A DNA stretch of 64,000 bases, taken from Escherichia coli (GTDB lineage: Bacteria > Pseudomonadota > Gammaproteobacteria > Enterobacterales > Enterobacteriaceae). The notes beneath the pieces are model-generated. The model searched no databases and was not told where the DNA came from. It saw only the letters and a program-made list of their open reading frames with translations. Of the stretch, positions 2,623 to 28,286 are shown piece by piece (within the stretch, counting starts at the first letter, position 1; every line of letters starts with the position of its first letter). The stretch is taken from assembly GCF_041886205.1 (NCBI RefSeq), contig NZ_CP169029.1. One strand, given 5' to 3'. Both the position numbers and the translations under genes were made by a program.

Positions 2623-3807
2623 ATGAAAAAAGTCATTTTATCTTTGGCTCTGGGCACGTTTGGTTTGGGGATGGCCGAATTTGGCATTATGGGCGTGCTC
2701 ACGGAGCTGGCGCATAACGTAGGAATTTCGATTCCTGCTGCCGGGCATATGATCTCGTATTATGCACTGGGGGTGGTGGTCGGTGCGCCAATCATCGCAC
2801 TCTTTTCCAGCCGCTACTCACTCAAACATATCTTGTTGTTTCTGGTGGCGTTGTGCGTCATTGGCAACGCCATGTTCACGCTCTCTTCGTCTTACCTGAT
2901 GCTCGCCATTGGTCGGCTGGTATCCGGCTTTCCGCATGGCGCATTTTTTGGCGTCGGAGCGATCGTGTTATCAAAAATTATCAAACCCGGAAAAGTCACC
3001 GCCGCCGTGGCGGGGATGGTTTCCGGGATGACAGTCGCCAATTTGCTGGGCATTCCGCTGGGAACGTATTTAAGTCAGGAATTTAGCTGGCGTTACACCT
3101 TTTTATTGATCGCTGTTTTTAATATTGCGGTGATGGCATCGGTCTATTTTTGGGTGCCGGATATTCGCGACGAGGCGAAAGGAAAGCTGCGCGAACAATT
3201 TCACTTTTTGCGCAGCCCAGCCCCGTGGTTAATTTTCGCCGCCACGATGTTTGGCAACGCAGGTGTGTTTGCCTGGTTCAGCTACGTAAAGCCATACATG
3301 ATGTTTATTTCCGGTTTTTCGGAAACGGCGATGACCTTTATTATGATGTTAGTTGGGCTAGGGATGGTGCTGGGAAATATGCTAAGTGGCAGGATTTCAG
3401 GACGTTATTCACCACTGCGCATTGCAGCAGTGACTGACTTTATAATTGTACTGGCACTGCTGATGCTCTTTTTCTGCGGCGGCATGAAAACAACGTCGCT
3501 TATTTTTGCTTTTATTTGTTGCGCGGGATTATTTGCCCTTTCAGCACCTCTGCAAATATTGTTACTGCAAAATGCCAAAGGCGGAGAGTTATTAGGTGCC
3601 GCAGGTGGGCAAATAGCGTTTAACCTCGGTAGCGCCGTCGGCGCATATTGCGGAGGTATGATGCTGACGCTGGGGCTGGCATATAATTACGTGGCGCTGC
3701 CTGCCGCCCTGCTTTCGTTTGCTGCGATGTCATCGTTGCTGCTGTATGGTCGCTATAAGCGCCAGCAAGCGGCGGATAGCCCGGTGCTGGCGAAACCACT
3801 GGGGTAG
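2623..3807 (+). CDS. araJ: MFS transporter AraJ
   Basis: 394-aa polytopic membrane protein starting MKKVILSLALGTFGLGMAEFG; upstream in-frame extension of the track ORF judged not coding; position between sbcC and mak. Confidence 0.9.
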   Translation: MKKVILSLALGTFGLGMAEFGIMGVLTELAHNVGISIPAAGHMISYYALGVVVGAPIIALFSSRYSLKHILLFLVALCVIGNAMFTLSSSYLMLAIGRLVSGFPHGAFFGVGAIVLSKIIKPGKVTAAVAGMVSGMTVANLLGIPLGTYLSQEFSWRYTFLLIAVFNIAVMASVYFWVPDIRDEAKGKLREQFHFLRSPAPWLIFAATMFGNAGVFAWFSYVKPYMMFISGFSETAMTFIMMLVGLGMVLGNMLSGRISGRYSPLRIAAVTDFIIVLALLMLFFCGGMKTTSLIFAFICCAGLFALSAPLQILLLQNAKGGELLGAAGGQIAFNLGSAVGAYCGGMMLTLGLAYNYVALPAALLSFAAMSSLLLYGRYKRQQAADSPVLAKPLG

Positions 3808-3832
3808 ATTACTGTCACGGTGCGCGTTGCTT

Positions 3833-3926
<94 letters not shown>

Positions 3927-3949
3927 GATGCGCCAATTGCCTACGTTTT

Positions 3950-4858
3950 TTACTCTTGTGGCCATAACCACGCAGCGCCGCGTACGCCGCTGGAATCACC
4001 GTGCTTCGCCTTACGCACCGGCGTTTCACATTCGCCGCCGAAGACAAATTGTTTAATCAACTGCGGAACCGTTTGATATAAACGGTCTACATTGCTCATC
4101 CCGCCCCCCAGCACAATCACATCCGGATCGAGAATATTCACGACATGTGCCAGCGATTTTGCCAGCCGCAGCTCGTAGCGACGCAATGCCAGTTCCGCTA
4201 CCGGATCGCTTTCTTCAACCAGGCTGATAATTTCACTGCCTTTCAGCGCATGTCCGCTCAAACGACGATAATCTGTGGCAAATCCCGTGCCCGAAATAAA
4301 GGTTTCAATACAACCTTGTTTACCGCAATAACAAGGGACTTCCTCGCGATAACGCAGTTCGTCTTCGTCCATCCACGGTAGCGGATTGTGTCCCCACTCG
4401 CCTGCCGTGCCATTGCCGCCGATATGCGCCCGCCCATTGAATGCCACGCCCGCGCCGCATCCCGTGCCGATAATCACGGCAAATACCGTCTGTGCTCCCG
4501 CTGCCGCGCCATCTACTGCTTCTGAAACGGCCAGACAGTTGGCGTCATTTGCCAGCCGCACTTCCCGCTGCAACCGCGCGCTTAAGTCTTTATCGAATGG
4601 CTGACCGTTGAGCCAGGTTGAATTGGCATTTTTCACCACGCCGGTGTAAGGCGAAATTGAGCCAGGAATGCCCATACCTACCGTTCCGCGCTGCCCTGTC
4701 GCCTGCTCCGCCATATCAACCAACGTGGCGATCGTTTCAATAGTCTGCCGGTAATCATCACGCGGCGTGGGCAGACGATGGCGGTACAACTGCTCCCCTG
4801 CATCGCCCAGTGCAATCACTTCAGTTTTGGTGCCGCCTAAATCGATACCTATACGCAC
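3950..4858 (-). CDS. mak: Fructokinase/mannokinase Mak (ROK family)
   Basis: ROK-family motifs ([28 protein letters not shown] zinc motif); start trimmed to a GTG giving the 302-aa form (VRIGIDLGG). Confidence 0.88.
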
Positions 4859-4982
4859 GGTACTCTCCTTATTTTTTTCAATATCAATAGCGTAGAGACG
4901 GACAACCGGATTGGCAATGCAAGGCCGCCGACAATTCGTTATCATGCCCGCTAAATTTAACGACAAGGCCGTGGAAATTATC

Positions 4983-5894: not shown

Positions 5895-5910
5895 TTGCTG
5901 ATTTTCCTTT

Positions 5911-5965
5911 AATGCCGGATGCGACGCCTGCCGCGTCTTATCCGGCGTACGAAGCCACACCAGGC
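5911..5965. repeat. REP-like palindromic unit downstream of rdgC
   Basis: GCCGGATGCGACGCCTGCCGCGTCTTATCCGGCGTAC. Confidence 0.7.
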
Positions 5966-5971
5966 ATATAA

Positions 5972-6427
5972 TTATTCGCTACGGCGGGCAATAATTTTTA
6001 GCGCAGCAATATTATGCGTTTTACGCCGTAACTGATCTAATCGCCTCATCCCTATTCGCCTGTCAGCAGCACGCAGAATATTCACTAACCCCCATTTATC
6101 GCTGGTAAATTGTTTTGTTAACAGCTCCGCTTTTGGGGTATCAATATATTCACGCAATAAATCAGAAATTGAACAAATATCCGTCAGGTAAGGATACCAG
6201 CAAGTTTCACCGTGAAAATTACGCACTCCACCGTTACCTGCAATAAAGTCTTTCGGGTAATCCCAGATCACGTTTTTATCCAACGTGATCCAATAACGCG
6301 GTAAATCGGTGCTTCCACCATTTTGGCTGCGCATGGGATAACGGGTACAGTGAATTTGCAGGTTGATCGTTGGCGTCAGTAAGTCATAGATCTCCCGCTG
6401 TAACTTGCTCCATGGGCGCTGTGTCAT
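5972..6427 (-). CDS. Hypothetical 151-aa cytoplasmic protein, translationally coupled to the upstream 762-aa gene
   Basis: ATG overlaps the stop of the 6424-8712 gene by 4 nt (ATGA); no signal peptide; AT-rich; no family recognised. Confidence 0.6.
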
Positions 6428-8712
6428 TGTTTTTCCTCAAGCCGGTGACGCGCTTCACTGCGAATTTTCCGCGTTGCCCCGGTTTTCACTAAATCACGTA
6501 ACAGCGAAAGATCGGGTTGTTCGACAAATAAGAGTAATGATGGATCCTCTTTTAACCACGCCGTTTTCACATCGGCAGCCAGCTGTGGATTATTAATAGC
6601 CAGCGACCGATCCTGAGGCTCAGTCAATGTCGTTAACAACGACGCCGGGGTATGTGCGTTGCGCAATGCCGTTTGGCGCAAATGATCATTGCGACTTTGC
6701 AGCAATGCACGCCACCATTCATCATCTGATTTATCTTTTATCGTAGCCAGTTCCGCAACAATATCGCTATCCTCACTGTTCCAGCGGTGTAATCCTCTTT
6801 CACTTTGCCTACGGGTGCTATTTTTCATACTGACAACAGCCAGCGCCCAGTCAGAGTTGAAGCGATACTGTTGATCGAGTTTGTTGATAATTCCGGTAGG
6901 TAATCCTTTATTATCAAATAATTGGTTACGCATTCGATAGCGGTATTCAGCGGGTAAATAAATCAGTAAATCAATGGCATTATTTAACATCTCTTCGTCA
7001 ACAACACCATTATCAATCAGCGCCAGCTGTACTTCGTAGGCTTGCTCTTGATCTTCTTGCCGTTTGCTCATCATTAAATTTAATGTGCGTTGCCATAACT
7101 GTTTCTTATATTCCAGCGGCAATAATTTATCGCGTGCCAGCTCATTCCAGACGGTAGTAACATCATGCTGAGTCAGTAGATAACTAATCACTTCCGTCGA
7201 TGCCAGATAACGCACACCTTCGCGTAAATTGTGCACATCTTCTTTTGCCAGAGACAGTTGACGCATCTCTGGCAACGCTATCAATAACGCCTTAACGATA
7301 TTTTTATTTTCTTTATTATCCAGATACATTTGTTCTGCGATACGTTCAATATCCTCTGTACGCAGGGTTGCTGACAGTTGGGTAATTTTTAGTTCAGTAA
7401 GCGTCCGGGCTAATGCTTCACGAACTTTCAGTGATTTATCTTTACTCAACTTCACAGCTTGTTGTGCGGTTAAATCTGCTCCGGTAATTCTTTCACGTAA
7501 CTCCGGGTCTTCGTTATTTATCAACTCATCGGTCACTGCAGTCGGAACCAGCCAGGCGTAATCGTAATGGCTGAGTAATGTCTTGCGCACACTGAGAAAG
7601 GGGCTATGACTTAACGACGCAACAATATCAGGAGAAAGATTATCCTGTCTGGCCTGCTCCAGCTGTACGCTCTCTACGGGTACAGACATTAATTTTTTAT
7701 TCACATCGGCGGAAATATTACTGTTTTTAACCAGCCCTCTGGCAACAGCCTCATCTTTAATTAATTCATCGGTAAGCAAATGCATCTGTTGAGCGGGCCA
7801 GGACTGCGCCATCGATTCACGCGTCTGGTCATCGGGGTGCTGTAACAGTTGCAGCATAACGGCGGGTGATAAACTCTCTTTATAGGTCAGAAAACGTGCC
7901 ACCAGTGGATCTTGATGCTTTATTTTATCTGCAGGGAAATTATCGAGTTTACCCGTTTCAATCCATTTTAATTTCTCATTAATTTCAGGAGCGGCTTTAT
8001 CGCGAAAAAGAGGTAAACCCTGAATGATGTTGTCTGCGACGCTATCATAGTCAGGATACGCATTGGAAATATTATCGGTTTCGATTTCAGTGTAATCATA
8101 AAGATCGGCAGTCACCAGTGAATAGGCTTTTTGAATATTCTCATCCCAGTTATATCCTTCACCACTTTCATCTTCATTGATATAAAATTCAGCTTTGATG
8201 ACCTCAAATTGCGTTGCTTTATCGGAAACAATAATGCCTCGCGCGCTAATTCCCTTCATTACTTCAAAGTTATGATCATTGTAATCAGCATAAACTAAAC
8301 CTTTCGCTGTCATCTGTCCTTTGACATACGCGAAATCATGATTAATAAAGTTATCGACAATAACATTACCTAATACAATCAGATGACCATTACCTGACAG
8401 ATAATCATCATAATCGCCGGAAATCGTTAAATTACCGTTCACCACCAGTTTATTTTGATTGCTGAAGTTAGCGGGTAATGATAGGTCACCATTATGATAA
8501 TACCAGCGGATATTATCTTTTAGCATATAAGCAGCTTCCATACTATCGTCGGTTGCCGCTTTAACCACGTTGCGCTCATCTGCCGTCATAAGATGAAAGT
8601 CAGAGGTGATAAGTTCCTCGCTACTGATCCACTCTGTGGCACATGCATTGCCAGTCATAAAAAATACGACCATCCAGATGACCAATATATTAATTCTATT
8701 CATAATCTTCAC
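6424..8712 (-). CDS. Hypothetical secreted/periplasmic repeat protein (762 aa) with N-terminal signal peptide and C-terminal HEAT/LRV-like helical repeats
   Basis: Long uninterrupted ORF; N-terminus [25 protein letters not shown] resembles a Sec signal peptide; Gly/Asn-rich N-terminal segment ([31 protein letters not shown]); repeated helical motifs toward the C-terminus (e.g. [22 protein letters not shown]); AT-rich relative to flanks. Confidence 0.75.
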
Positions 8713-8846
8713 TGATATTTATATCAACCTTGATGAATTATGAATATATCGGAAATTGAAAAAATCGCAGCAAAGGAAATATTATTATAGGTTAAAGAGA
8801 GGATATTTCAGAAAAATGCCCTCCCGTTCAAGGGGAAGGCGAGGAA

Positions 8847-9131
8847 TTACAGATAGCGGCACAGATAAGAGGTGGGTTCGGCAACTTGCAGATGAAACTC
8901 GCTGTGACCGGGAACATTAAACACCGAACCGGCTTCATACACTTGCCAGTCGGTCGCGTCAGGCAGTAACACATTCAGCGCGCCACTGATTACCGTCATC
9001 TCTTCCGGCTCAGCGGTGCTGAAGGTGTATTCGCCTTCAACCATAACACCCACGCTGGCGCGACCAGTGCTGCTGCTGGAAAAGCCGATTGATTTCACTT
9101 TGCCGGAAAAGTACTCATTACTTTGAAGCAT
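8847..9131 (-). CDS. ppnP: Pyrimidine/purine nucleoside phosphorylase PpnP (YaiE)
   Basis: 94-aa protein [17 protein letters not shown]...; conserved position next to aroM. Confidence 0.9.
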
Positions 9132-22177: not shown

Positions 22178-22864
<687 letters not shown>

Positions 22865-22886
22865 TATTTCTTCAGAGTGAAGAATA

Positions 22887-25829
<2,943 letters not shown>

Positions 25830-26354
25830 TTGTCATCCCTCCTCAGGGACGTAATAAGTTGATCCATCAATTATCAATGCATAGAAAACATCTTATGTTT
25901 CGCGTTTACGATTATGCGGCGTTATAGAGGAATGGTTCAATTATTCTTTCCCCTAAGTCCGATTGCGGACATATATAAAGCACGGAGGAACACATAAAAC
26001 AAAAATTGACAAAAACTTAATAATTCAACCAGTTAAACGAGATGTAATTTTTAATGTATATGCATTGAAAATATCAAAACCACAAACCAGATAAATAATT
26101 TATCAATAAACAATGAACTTTAAAGCTTTCTGTTTTTGACAACACAACCAATTCTCCAAAAACAATAATCAAGGGCTATAAATAAAGATTAAAAATATTT
26201 TCAGTGAATATGAAATTATTGCTATTTCTATTACAAAGATGTCCTGGTCTCTCTTTCATTCTCTTCTTGTCAACATCGCGACAACTTTCGTAAAACACTC
26301 CTGCCCCGCTTCAGGTATACTGTGCACCTTAATTCCACAAACATCAGGCAGACC

Positions 26355-27329
26355 ATGACAGACTTAATCCAACGCCCTCGTCGCCTGCGCAAATCTCCTG
26401 CGCTGCGCGCTATGTTTGAAGAGACAACACTTAGCCTTAACGACCTGGTGTTGCCGATCTTTGTTGAAGAAGAAATTGACGACTACAAAGCCGTTGAAGC
26501 CATGCCAGGCGTGATGCGCATTCCAGAGAAACATCTGGCACGCGAAATTGAACGCATCGCCAACGCCGGTATTCGTTCCGTGATGACTTTTGGCATCTCT
26601 CACCATACCGATGAAACCGGCAGCGATGCCTGGCGGGAAGATGGACTGGTGGCGCGTATGTCGCGCATCTGCAAGCAGACCGTGCCAGAAATGATCGTCA
26701 TGTCAGACACCTGCTTCTGTGAATACACTTCTCACGGTCACTGCGGTGTGCTGTGCGAGCATGGCGTCGACAACGACGCGACTCTGGAAAATTTAGGCAA
26801 GCAAGCCGTGGTTGCAGCTGCTGCAGGCGCAGACTTCATCGCCCCTTCCGCCGCGATGGATGGCCAGGTACAGGCTATTCGCCAGGCGCTGGACGCTGCA
26901 GGCTTTAAAGATACGGCGATTATGTCGTATTCGACCAAGTTCGCCTCTTCCTTTTATGGTCCGTTCCGTGAAGCTGCCGGAAGCGCATTAAAAGGCGACC
27001 GCAAAAGCTATCAGATGAACCCAATGAACCGTCGCGAGGCGATTCGTGAATCACTGCTGGATGAAGCCCAGGGCGCAGACTGCCTGATGGTTAAACCTGC
27101 TGGAGCATACCTCGACATCGTGCGTGAGCTGCGTGAACGTACTGAATTGCCGATTGGCGCGTATCAGGTGAGCGGTGAGTACGCGATGATTAAGTTCGCC
27201 GCGCTGGCGGGTGCTATAGATGAAGAGAAAGTCGTGCTCGAAAGCTTAGGTTCGATTAAGCGTGCGGGTGCGGATCTGATTTTCAGCTACTTTGCGCTGG
27301 ATTTGGCTGAGAAGAAGATTCTGCGTTAA
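26355..27329 (+). CDS. hemB: Porphobilinogen synthase (delta-aminolevulinic acid dehydratase)
   Basis: 324-aa form starting [23 protein letters not shown]; conserved active-site region. Confidence 0.95.
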
Positions 27330-27434
27330 TTTTTTTCCTCTCAGAAAGGGGGAGTTAACCTGTTGAAAGTACGGTGAACGCCCCCTCACCCTAACCCTCT
27401 CCCCAAGGGGGCGAGGGAACCGTCCGCACTCGTA

Positions 27435-28286
27435 TCACCCCGCCCGATAAAACGGTTTATCCCCAAGGATCGTCGCCCGATGCATAATCCGCCGCTGTGG
27501 CAGGTAATCGGCATTGGCATAGTGCTGAGTCACGCGGTTATCCCAAATCGCAATATCATTCGGTTGCCAGCGCCAACGCACCTGAAACTCCGGTTTAGTG
27601 ATATGGGCGAATAAAAAGCCTAACAAGGCTTCGCTCTCTTTCTCGCTGACATCGACAATTCGCGTAGTAAAGCCTTCATTCACAAACAGCGCCTGTTTAC
27701 CGCTCACCGGATGCGTTCGCACCACCGGATGTAGCAACGGAGGATTTTTCGCGACCGCCTCGCGCCAGCGTTGATGTTCCTCCTCGGTTTTGCGGTATTT
27801 GTATTCCGGGAACGATTTACGGAAATCATGCTCCGCACGCAGCCCGCTCAGCAGCTGGCGGAAGGGAACAGAGAGCGCCTCATAGGCCGCAATACCGCTG
27901 GTCCAGAGCGTATCACCGCCGGTCGAAGGTAACTCTTTAGCTGCCAGAATCGCCCCTGCGGGTGGCGTTTCAATAAATGTCACATCGGTATGCCAGTTGT
28001 CGTTATCCGGCGGATTATCGTTATGGGTATCCAGCACGATGATCTCGTCAACCCCTTCGGCATGAGGGTAAACAGGGTGAATATGCAGTTCGCCAAAACG
28101 CTGGGCCAGCGCGCGTTGCTGCTGCGGCGTAATAGTTTGATCGCGCAGAAACACCACCTGATGGCGCAGCACCGCATGGTAAAGCTGTTCAAACTGATTA
28201 TCACTTAACGGGCGCGTCAGGTCGGCGCCCGTAATTTGTGCGCCAATATACGGCCCCAGCGGGGTAATGCTCAGACGTTCACTCAT
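27435..28286 (-). CDS. tauD: Taurine dioxygenase (alpha-ketoglutarate dependent)
   Basis: 283 aa, [27 protein letters not shown], His-x-Asp...His Fe(II) motif; last gene of the tauABCD cluster. Confidence 0.95.

Follow-up and report, generated by a model that had tools for sequence, protein, structure and literature searches.

The ykiA-SF0329 gene pair between ppnP and rdgC of Escherichia coli: probably an intact allele of an old accessory islet encoding two uncharacterised protein families

Are the two overlapping genes that some strains of Escherichia coli carry between rdgC and ppnP a functional unit, or are they neighbours by common descent only? The question is raised by a stretch of 64,000 nucleotides (nt) of E. 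coli DNA (the window; contig NZ_CP169029.1), in which the gene order is araJ, mak, rdgC (plus strand), two minus-strand genes, ppnP, aroM, yaiA and aroL. Both open reading frames (ORFs) of this module, a large one (6424..8712) and a small one (5972..6427), are carried by the minus strand, and they overlap by the four nucleotides ATGA; a first-pass annotation of the sequence had described them so, and the ORF list and the sequence confirm it. The stretches searched here (5900-8850 and 22500-28000) are 100% identical to strain wlxctx60 (NZ_AP045833), from which the RefSeq annotation was taken.

Probably the segment is an old accessory islet of low GC content, located at the ppnP-rdgC site of Enterobacteriaceae and preserved here as the intact allele; it encodes two proteins of uncharacterised families that are neighbours by shared descent. 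In the scheme proposed, the first gene is full-length ykiA, whose product would be a Sec-exported periplasmic scaffold or binder with an N-terminal beta-solenoid followed by an alpha-solenoid of ~520 residues, similar to leucine-rich repeat variant (LRV) and HEAT proteins. The second gene would encode a small, basic, cytoplasmic protein of the SF0329 family, very conserved, patchily distributed across phyla and without a fixed partner, which may act as a stand-alone protective, immunity-like factor. Both genes would be transcribed from a promoter upstream of ykiA, and the small one would be translated through a Shine-Dalgarno sequence and an ATG of its own, which lie within the last part of ykiA. 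Relatives carry a second, signal-less paralogue (B-type) between the two genes or in place of the first (A-type). The islet appears to be dispensable, being deleted in ~92% of sequenced E. coli. Such a scheme explains what the pseudogene ykiA and the expressed peptide YkiD of strain K-12 are remnants of. Both proteins are already catalogued (RefSeq WP accessions, Pfam, NCBIfam), and the locus is an ordinary decaying islet with nothing categorically new.

The islet at the ppnP-rdgC site

Three arrangements of the site are found in enteric bacteria. In Escherichia, as in the window, the order is ppnP - A - SF0329 (with the ATGA overlap) - rdgC. In contig L095 it is ppnP - A (signal peptide, 48% identical) - B (no signal peptide, 29%) - 66 nt - SF0329 (70%) - rdgC, and in contig L098 ppnP - B - 89 nt - SF0329 (79%) - rdgC. 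The B-type gene is a second paralogue, its product being 29% identical to the large protein (L095, 323-2575 for A and 2665-4929 for B; L098, 532-2799 for B), and lies directly upstream of SF0329 in both contigs. Its product begins exactly at the position where the mature A-type protein starts; it is therefore devoid of a signal peptide and would be the cytoplasmic version of a mostly exported family. The possibility that the large protein of E. coli is an A/B chimera, formed after the loss of B, was rejected, as it is A-type along its whole length.

The only meeting places of the two families are variants of this one site in Enterobacteriaceae, which argues for a single ancestral, vertically inherited arrangement. 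The islet or its stubs occupy the same site in E. albertii, in cryptic Escherichia clades and in further genera of enterics. Searches there for a tRNA, an integrase, flanking repeats and Rfam elements found none; Rfam, tRNA and repeat scans of the module itself gave nothing. On these comparisons the islet appears to be old, not recently acquired, and the ATGA overlap appears to be a derived, Escherichia-specific state, relatives having spacers of 66-89 nt. The base composition is clearly deviating: the GC content of the module is 0.426 against a mean of 0.519 (sd 0.035) for the window, among the lowest 0.8% of sliding 2.7-kb windows, and at third codon positions (GC3) it is 0.40 in the large gene and 0.45 in the small one against 0.58 in rdgC and ppnP. 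The first-pass annotation had noticed that the segment is more AT-rich than its flanks, as these comparisons bear out, and had taken it for horizontally acquired or fast-evolving DNA. Of these two the latter is supported, since the large gene is diverging much faster than rdgC (nonsynonymous divergence, dN, 0.16 vs 0.003); recent acquisition is not supported, given the presence of the islet at the same site in other enterics and the lack of mobility hallmarks.

Within E. coli most alleles are decayed. At least 80% of the large gene is present in 443 of 5426 complete genomes (8%), O157:H7 among them, and at least 80% of the small-gene DNA in 920 of the 5426, while ~5000 keep some 3' remnant of the large gene, typically the 338-nt stub of the K-12 type. 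In K-12 itself only remnants are found at the site: the large gene is deleted, leaving the ykiA pseudogene as a remnant of the window's large gene, and the small gene has undergone a 372-nt in-frame deletion, bracketed by the 9-nt direct repeats GTTACAGCG and GTTACGGCG, which turned it into ykiD. YkiD (27 residues; K-12 locus L002, 3073-3156) is thus an in-frame fusion of the first 11 and the last 16 residues of the SF0329 protein. That K-12 has a decayed ykiA at this position had been stated correctly in the first-pass annotation, which did not mention that a full-length paralogue, YdbD, is present elsewhere in that strain.

Other alleles have lost one or both genes in different ways. In another common E. 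coli allele the large gene is wholly deleted and the small one frameshifted; in Escherichia sp. MOD1-EC7003 the large gene is deleted at the K-12 junction and the small gene is intact; E. albertii retains an intact small gene (87%) and a mere 3' trace of the large one; and Escherichia sp. E4930 keeps the large gene (73% identical), the small gene being reduced to a 3' stub. The small-gene deletion of E4930 is independent of that of K-12, and the two have the right-hand 9-nt repeat as a common end point. Intact copies of both genes are under purifying selection, the ratio of nonsynonymous to synonymous divergence (dN/dS) being ~0.06 in the small gene and, against E4930, 0.13 in the large one.

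As regards expression, the promoter-like sequence upstream of the large gene falls in the region that matches the K-12 ykiA promoter, just downstream of the ppnP terminator, and the ppnP-ykiA intergenic sequence is near-identical between the window and K-12. In the latter strain the promoter in this spacer has been mapped by rapid amplification of 5' cDNA ends (5'-RACE) and is activated by the BglJ-RcsB heterodimer, whose regulon includes ykiA, ynbA and molR (PMC3950696). Moreover, YkiD has been detected in K-12 by chromosomal tagging with the sequential peptide affinity (SPA) tag (PMC6001520), and it starts at the same start codon as the intact SF0329 gene, which in the window is preceded by a Shine-Dalgarno-like GAGGA lying inside the end of ykiA. 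The locus is therefore transcribed and the SF0329 start codon used in vivo. That the small ORF is real and translated, as the first-pass annotation had supposed, is further supported by its low dN/dS and by ~540 homologues. It was also observed that the ynbA operon lies directly downstream of the paralogue ydbD (K-12 locus L093, 10550-15001), which hints at a common envelope-stress control of the loci around both solenoid paralogues.

The two proteins and their families

For the large protein, RefSeq places the start at the ATG at 8703 (759 residues), an alternative GTG at 8712 giving 762. Its N-terminus shows the n-, h- and c-regions and the A-x-A site of signals processed by Sec and signal peptidase I (SPase I), and the AlphaFold2 (AF2) model contains, at low confidence, a hydrophobic helix over residues 1-20. 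Furthermore, the sequence that follows the predicted cleavage site is conserved across the family, where the motif A/xEW..S (the slash marks the cleavage site) follows the relatives' own signal peptides. The Sec-type signal peptide of the first-pass annotation is, as a prediction, in agreement with these features, and its description of a Gly/Asn-rich beta segment followed by HEAT/LRV-like repeats is borne out by AF2 and Foldseek. The Gly/Asn-rich segment corresponds to a predicted beta-solenoid (residues 68-176), and the Foldseek matches include proteins named 'polymer-forming cytoskeletal protein'. The Pfam Bactofilin model (PF04519) gives no match to the large protein at E<=10, and its match to YdbD reaches only E 0.05; the likeness to bactofilin, as judged from the model, would be one of fold level only.

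The remainder of the AF2 model, whose predicted local distance difference test score (pLDDT) averages 76.5, is a helical-repeat solenoid running from residue 240 to 759 without interruption. The Pfam match is confined to the last 81 residues (DUF2773, PF10971), a model evidently built on the K-12 remnant. Among the Foldseek matches in AFDB50 are E. coli entries named 'DUF2773 domain-containing bactofilin' and proteins of ~770 residues annotated as 'HEAT repeat' or 'Leucine rich repeat variant' (from Tahibacter, Halopseudomonas and others). Some of the entries matched, for YdbD-type proteins, bear the label 'involved in detoxification of methylglyoxal', which would be a putative function. The predicted helical solenoid thus resembles the LRV (PDB 1LRV) and HEAT alpha-solenoids, as which many of its Foldseek matches are annotated; however, their sequence models do not match the large protein (Pfam HEAT, E 4.1), which is predicted to be exported and in which a beta-solenoid precedes the helices.

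The closest comparison within K-12 is YdbD, intact in that strain between pdxI and ynbA. BLASTP gives 28% identity over 744 residues (E 8e-86), with residues 32 to 757 of the large protein aligned, and the whole-length architecture is common to both: predicted signal peptide, beta-solenoid, LRV/HEAT-like solenoid and C-terminal DUF2773. The two differ in that ydbD lies at another locus with no SF0329 gene after it, and in that K-12 has retained it, most E. coli having lost ykiA by deletion. When 1.84 billion cluster representatives were searched with a profile, 95 clusters of the family were obtained at E<=1e-30, and ~45 of the best 150 hits listed are full-length clusters, so that the large protein is no orphan. 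In most full-length relatives a signal-peptide-like N-terminus precedes the A/xEW..S motif, while a minority start exactly there, without a signal. From these alignments the large protein belongs to a real, uncharacterised family of mostly exported proteins built of a beta- and an alpha-solenoid. A metagenome scan for A-type relatives found two E. coli contigs only, and the broader A-type alignment was too divergent for building search patterns.

No enzymatic, toxin, anchoring or secretion-system domain was found by Pfam in the large protein, and no barrel or usher features either; the adhesin/chaperone-like pair contemplated in the first-pass annotation finds no support in these searches. Neither protein has a match in PADLOC (E<=0.1), a match in PHROGs or a homologue in phage genomes, or a useful match in sequence searches of the PDB. 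From all this we infer a Sec-exported, non-enzymatic periplasmic scaffold or binding protein. The YdbD/YkiA solenoid family is an uncharacterised, envelope-linked one, with predicted exported and cytoplasmic forms and BglJ-RcsB control, and it is accessible in E. coli genetics.

The small protein, in turn, had been described as having neither a signal peptide nor a recognisable motif. The absence of a signal peptide holds, but the protein does match known models: NF049912 with 94.6 bits (cutoff 60; residues 6-148 on profile positions 2-160 of 161) and PF25753 with E 3.8e-22. It is 98% identical to the Shigella/E. coli cluster representative of the SF0329 family, named after SF0329 of Shigella flexneri, and is a full-length member with no sequence difference setting it apart. 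The predicted structure (pLDDT 87.9) consists of a three-stranded sheet followed by helices, and the helical C-terminal part is rich in Arg and Lys. Foldseek against AFDB50 gave SF0329-like proteins only, all uncharacterised and two of them annotated as DUF4304, with no fold match to any enzyme; no solved structure of SF0329 was found, the small protein itself has no Imm or SUKH match in Pfam, and a literature search on SF0329, DUF2773, DUF4304 and DUF4240 with immunity found no functional paper.

The most striking property of the SF0329 family is how widespread it is. Its homologues (n=542), many of them 55-65% identical to the E. coli protein, occur in Ruminococcus/Oscillospiraceae, Bacteroidales, many metagenome-assembled genomes (MAGs) of Campylobacter, and Leptospira, as well as in Sutterella/Parasutterella, Acinetobacter, Thiorhodococcus, Desulfobacterales and others, and ~20-22 residues, mostly polar or aromatic, are invariant, among them K8, Q10, H26/C27, R44/Y45, D56, D110/W112 and D122/R124. 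This conservation from Escherichia to Ruminococcus, Bacteroidales, Campylobacter and Leptospira, together with the lack of a solved fold relative and the occurrence as a cassette in immunity arrays of Bacteroidales, makes SF0329 the part of the islet worth following up. None of 50,697 phage records contains the gene, and a single genuine plasmid does (Photobacterium, where it adjoins a recombinase and a helicase/DUF1998 pair), by which a phage- or plasmid-borne nature was ruled out. A 1.2-Mb E. coli 'plasmid' record of PLSDB (CP061270.1, 672757-673197; SF0329 100% identical) contains the chromosomal locus and probably represents a piece of the chromosome that was deposited under the name of a plasmid.

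Linkage of the two genes and possible roles of SF0329

The neighbourhood of SF0329 was surveyed in 80 genome loci plus several contigs (~85 fetched loci), among which a DUF2773-family trace near SF0329 was found in Escherichia loci only. Its six nearest genes (three per side) gave 411 proteins falling into 264 clusters, and recurrent neighbours were found only within closely related Campylobacter MAGs. In different Bacillota the gene abuts those for a histidine kinase, ArgD and GltX at -4 to +2 nt, and RNase Z follows it with an 8-nt overlap. The large proteins encoded upstream are PurL, acyl-CoA dehydrogenases, a serine recombinase and unknowns, with no recognisable toxin among them. With Pfam, 120 representatives of the neighbours proved to be a mixed set (AAA, GNAT, DUF4240, MBL, RtcB and others), and NCBIfam, on 38 tightly linked or large upstream neighbours, returned mostly housekeeping proteins (histidine kinase, RNase Z, GltX, ArgD, Ada, PurL, acyl-CoA dehydrogenase) or nothing. 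Conversely, no SF0329 gene lies near four further DUF2773-family loci, those of YdbD, P0125 (49% identical), P0129 and P0135. Outside enterics the two families were thus never found together in the loci examined (~80 for SF0329 and 4 further for DUF2773). Loci with the large gene only (E4930, YdbD, P0125, P0129, P0135) and with the small gene only (E. albertii, MOD1-EC7003 and ~80 elsewhere) both exist, and, because the ATGA overlap is Escherichia-specific and relatives have spacers and the B-type gene, the pairing is read as shared descent of one islet and not as an obligate two-component mechanism.

In the Campylobacter MAGs SF0329 stands in a conserved neighbourhood (L033-L077 and L089; ~27 uncultured MAG species, many from one study), with genes for proteins of 227 and 177 residues upstream, which overlap each other by 8 nt, and a methyltransferase-like gene downstream. 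In Leminorella grimontii (L004/L014, 3238-6471) a tight same-strand run downstream of tolB-pal-cpoB ends in SF0329; it comprises a helix-turn-helix gene, two unknowns, a WGR+DUF4240 protein, a 109-residue unknown and SF0329, with spacers of 18-62 nt from the first unknown gene to SF0329, and has the appearance of a short accessory array of several genes within the genome of an enteric bacterium.

A functional two-protein unit would require SF0329 to be the cytoplasmic partner, regulator or chaperone of a DUF2773-family solenoid protein, its client being the signal-less B-type paralogue or, in Escherichia, the A-type precursor, and the operon being kept through the interaction. The adjacency is indeed maintained in three diverged arrangements (A-S, B-S and A-B-S, where S is SF0329), the genes overlap by 4 nt in Escherichia, the B-type protein has no signal peptide and would therefore share its compartment with SF0329, and the sampled E. 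coli alleles without the large gene have a frameshifted small gene. Nevertheless, the three arrangements share one chromosomal site and therefore reflect one historical event, the survey found no co-occurrence outside enterics, E. albertii and MOD1-EC7003 have an intact SF0329 under constraint in spite of the loss of the large gene, and E4930 has an intact large gene in spite of the deletion of SF0329. The functional unit is accordingly held to be unlikely, the B-type protein being a more plausible partner of SF0329 than the A-type one. Far less probable still is the pair of a cognate secreted effector and its immunity protein suggested in the first-pass annotation, by which the large protein would be toxic outside the cell and the small one would protect the producer. 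The likeness to the polymorphic toxin/immunity pairs of contact-dependent inhibition (CDI), Rhs and type VI and VII secretion systems (T6SS/T7SS) lies in the gene order, in a large exported protein overlapping a small cytoplasmic one, in the low GC and in the variable presence, to which the occurrence of SF0329 in immunity-type arrays of Bacteroidales may be added. However, the large protein is, in the AF2 model, a repeat solenoid up to its last residue, and it remains collinear at the C-terminus with YdbD and with both types of paralogue (A and B), quite contrary to what the tip of a polymorphic toxin would show. Pfam detects in it no toxin or enzymatic domain and no trafficking domain of the type V, VI or VII systems (T5SS, T6SS, T7SS), Rhs or LXG kind, a Sec signal being all that it has; an immunity protein in the cytoplasm would have no contact with a periplasmic protein; some genomes have the large gene only (E4930, that of the P0125 locus, and every K-12 with its YdbD); linkage does not extend beyond one enteric locus; and PADLOC is without a match. 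As a variable or recognisable toxin tip, a trafficking domain and co-inheritance, three defining properties, are all lacking, the effector/immunity reading is not supported for the pair. It is possibly right for the small gene alone, given the Bacteroidales arrays.

In these arrays, those of L008, L009 and L019 (Parabacteroides distasonis), SF0329 is one cassette within a long same-strand series of genes. In L008 and L009 the array follows a tyrosine recombinase gene and also holds an Imm10 gene and a DarG-like macro-domain gene, and in all three a recurring attC-like intergenic motif, TAACAAACAGC...GCTGCCGGACATTA, brackets the SF0329 cassette. The motif, in the form TAACAA[A/G]C...stem...GC[C/T]GCCGGACATTA[G/T], stands between nearly all array genes (L008, 3750-8990; L009, 3090-6210; L019, 27-5235). 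A recombinase, same-strand small genes and repeated intergenic motifs are the hallmarks of the rAID-1 orphan-immunity clusters (Ross et al., bioRxiv 10.1101/471110), and the Bacteroidales homologues share them; E. coli SF0329, by contrast, has no array, nearby recombinase or repeat, and in other phyla SF0329 mostly occurs as a solitary gene. The idea that arrays of small genes are its usual setting was rejected, as its rate (12%) equals that of control genes.

The most likely role of SF0329, proposed by analogy with these arrays and with low confidence, would be that of a stand-alone protective, immunity-like factor. A bolder form of this proposal is that it is an immunity-like protein conserved across phyla, with a fold unseen in the PDB, which neutralises a widespread interbacterial toxin or repairs its damage (possibly NAD-dependent or nucleic-acid-directed) and moves between gut bacteria as a single promoter-less gene, to the 3' ends of resident operons or into rAID-1 cassettes; this we regard as unlikely. 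If it were true, the minority of E. coli strains keeping SF0329, O157:H7 included, would resist an attack that K-12-type strains cannot withstand, and more generally, if SF0329 neutralises a toxin or repairs damage, it would be a broadly shared determinant of competition in gut communities. A further possibility within that proposal is that the signal-less B-type solenoid is the cytoplasmic partner of SF0329. Alternatively, SF0329 could be a small enzyme or nucleic-acid-binding factor, with a link e.g. to ADP-ribose metabolism or RNA repair; its gene would then spread by itself, as a selfish or accessory element, and stand after ykiA incidentally. The ~22 invariant, mostly polar or aromatic residues, the isoelectric point (pI) of 9.6, the Arg/Lys-rich C-terminal helices and the 55-65% identity across phyla would suit such a factor, as would the DarG-like macro domain adjoining it in one array, the RtcB and ADP-ribosylglycohydrolase genes of the neighbour census, and a fusion to the RNA 2'-phosphotransferase KptA/Tpt1. 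In this fusion (protein P0275; L078, 2162-3199, from an uncultured Bacilli MAG) a single ORF encodes the SF0329 domain and KptA/Tpt1 (NF002014, 241.7 bits), but it is confined to one 90%-identity cluster with 44 member sequences, so that recurrence of the fusion was rejected. Since, moreover, the neighbours are otherwise heterogeneous, no enzyme fold is matched and the family is not found in phages and hardly at all on plasmids, which leaves no obvious vehicle for its spread, this alternative is considered quite improbable.

Several points weigh against the interpretation preferred here, that of an old islet whose genes are neighbours by descent and whose small protein is a protective factor. 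The DUF2773-SF0329 adjacency has outlasted saturating synonymous divergence in at least three enteric lineages, and its survival could reflect function, not inertia. In E. coli proper, all three of the sampled 'small-only' alleles are frameshifted, and the independence of the small gene therefore rests on E. albertii and one cryptic-clade genome. BglJ-RcsB control and the export of the large protein in the window strain we infer. With respect to the protective role, small-gene arrays account for 6 of 50 non-Campylobacter SF0329 loci, the same rate as for control genes; no cognate toxin gene was seen next to SF0329 in any fetched locus, and SF0329 is not known to neutralise any toxin. An identity of 55-65% across phyla, with ~20 invariant polar residues, is unusual for immunity proteins, and such conservation would also fit an enzyme or a nucleic-acid-binding protein.

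Features of the locus

The features of the module and of its borders are collected in Table 1. The palindrome between the converging small gene and rdgC is presumably a repetitive extragenic palindromic (REP) element, as judged from the E. coli REP consensus; no Rfam family matches the region 5914..5946.

Table 1. Features of the ykiA-SF0329 module and its flanks (positions in the window; aa, amino acids)
Feature	Position	Strand	Basis or remark
rdgC	ends 5894	+	neighbour on the small-gene side
REP-like palindrome GCCGGATAAGACGCG...CGCATCCGGC	5914..5946	.	between converging small gene and rdgC; read from sequence
Small gene, SF0329-family protein, 151 aa, pI 9.6, no signal peptide	5972..6427	-	
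9-nt direct repeats GTTACAGCG (6404..6396) and GTTACGGCG (6032..6024)	6024..6404	-	alignment with K-12
Gene junction	6424..6438	-	GAGGA 6438..6434, 6-nt spacer, ATGA 6427..6424; small-gene ATG (6427..6425) overlaps large-gene TGA (6426..6424)
Large gene, full-length ykiA, 759 aa	6424..8703	-	ORF list and RefSeq ('DUF2773 domain-containing protein')
DUF2773 (PF10971) match, aa 679-759	6427..6669	-	Pfam E 4.6e-44, full model 1-81
Predicted alpha-solenoid, LRV/HEAT-like helical repeats, aa 240-759	6427..7986	-	AF2 secondary structure, Foldseek
Predicted beta-solenoid domain, aa 68-176, weakly bactofilin-like	8176..8502	-	AF2 short strands, pLDDT ~75-89
Predicted Sec signal peptide, aa 1-22, cleavage before TEW	8638..8703	-	hydrophobic core, A-C-A site
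Promoter-like CTGAAA-16-TATAAT, upstream of large gene	8784..8811	-	consensus scan, 10/12 matches
Intrinsic-terminator-like hairpin ending ppnP	8818..8840	-	terminator scan; sets ppnP apart from the module
ppnP	8847..9131	-	neighbour on the large-gene side

Finally, the window contains a second low-GC patch (22887..25829, minus strand), near hemB, tauD and iprA, which corresponds to an intact gene for the 980-residue autotransporter adhesin ehaB; the 22500-28000 stretch around it is covered to at least 80% in 1725 of the 5426 complete E. coli genomes.

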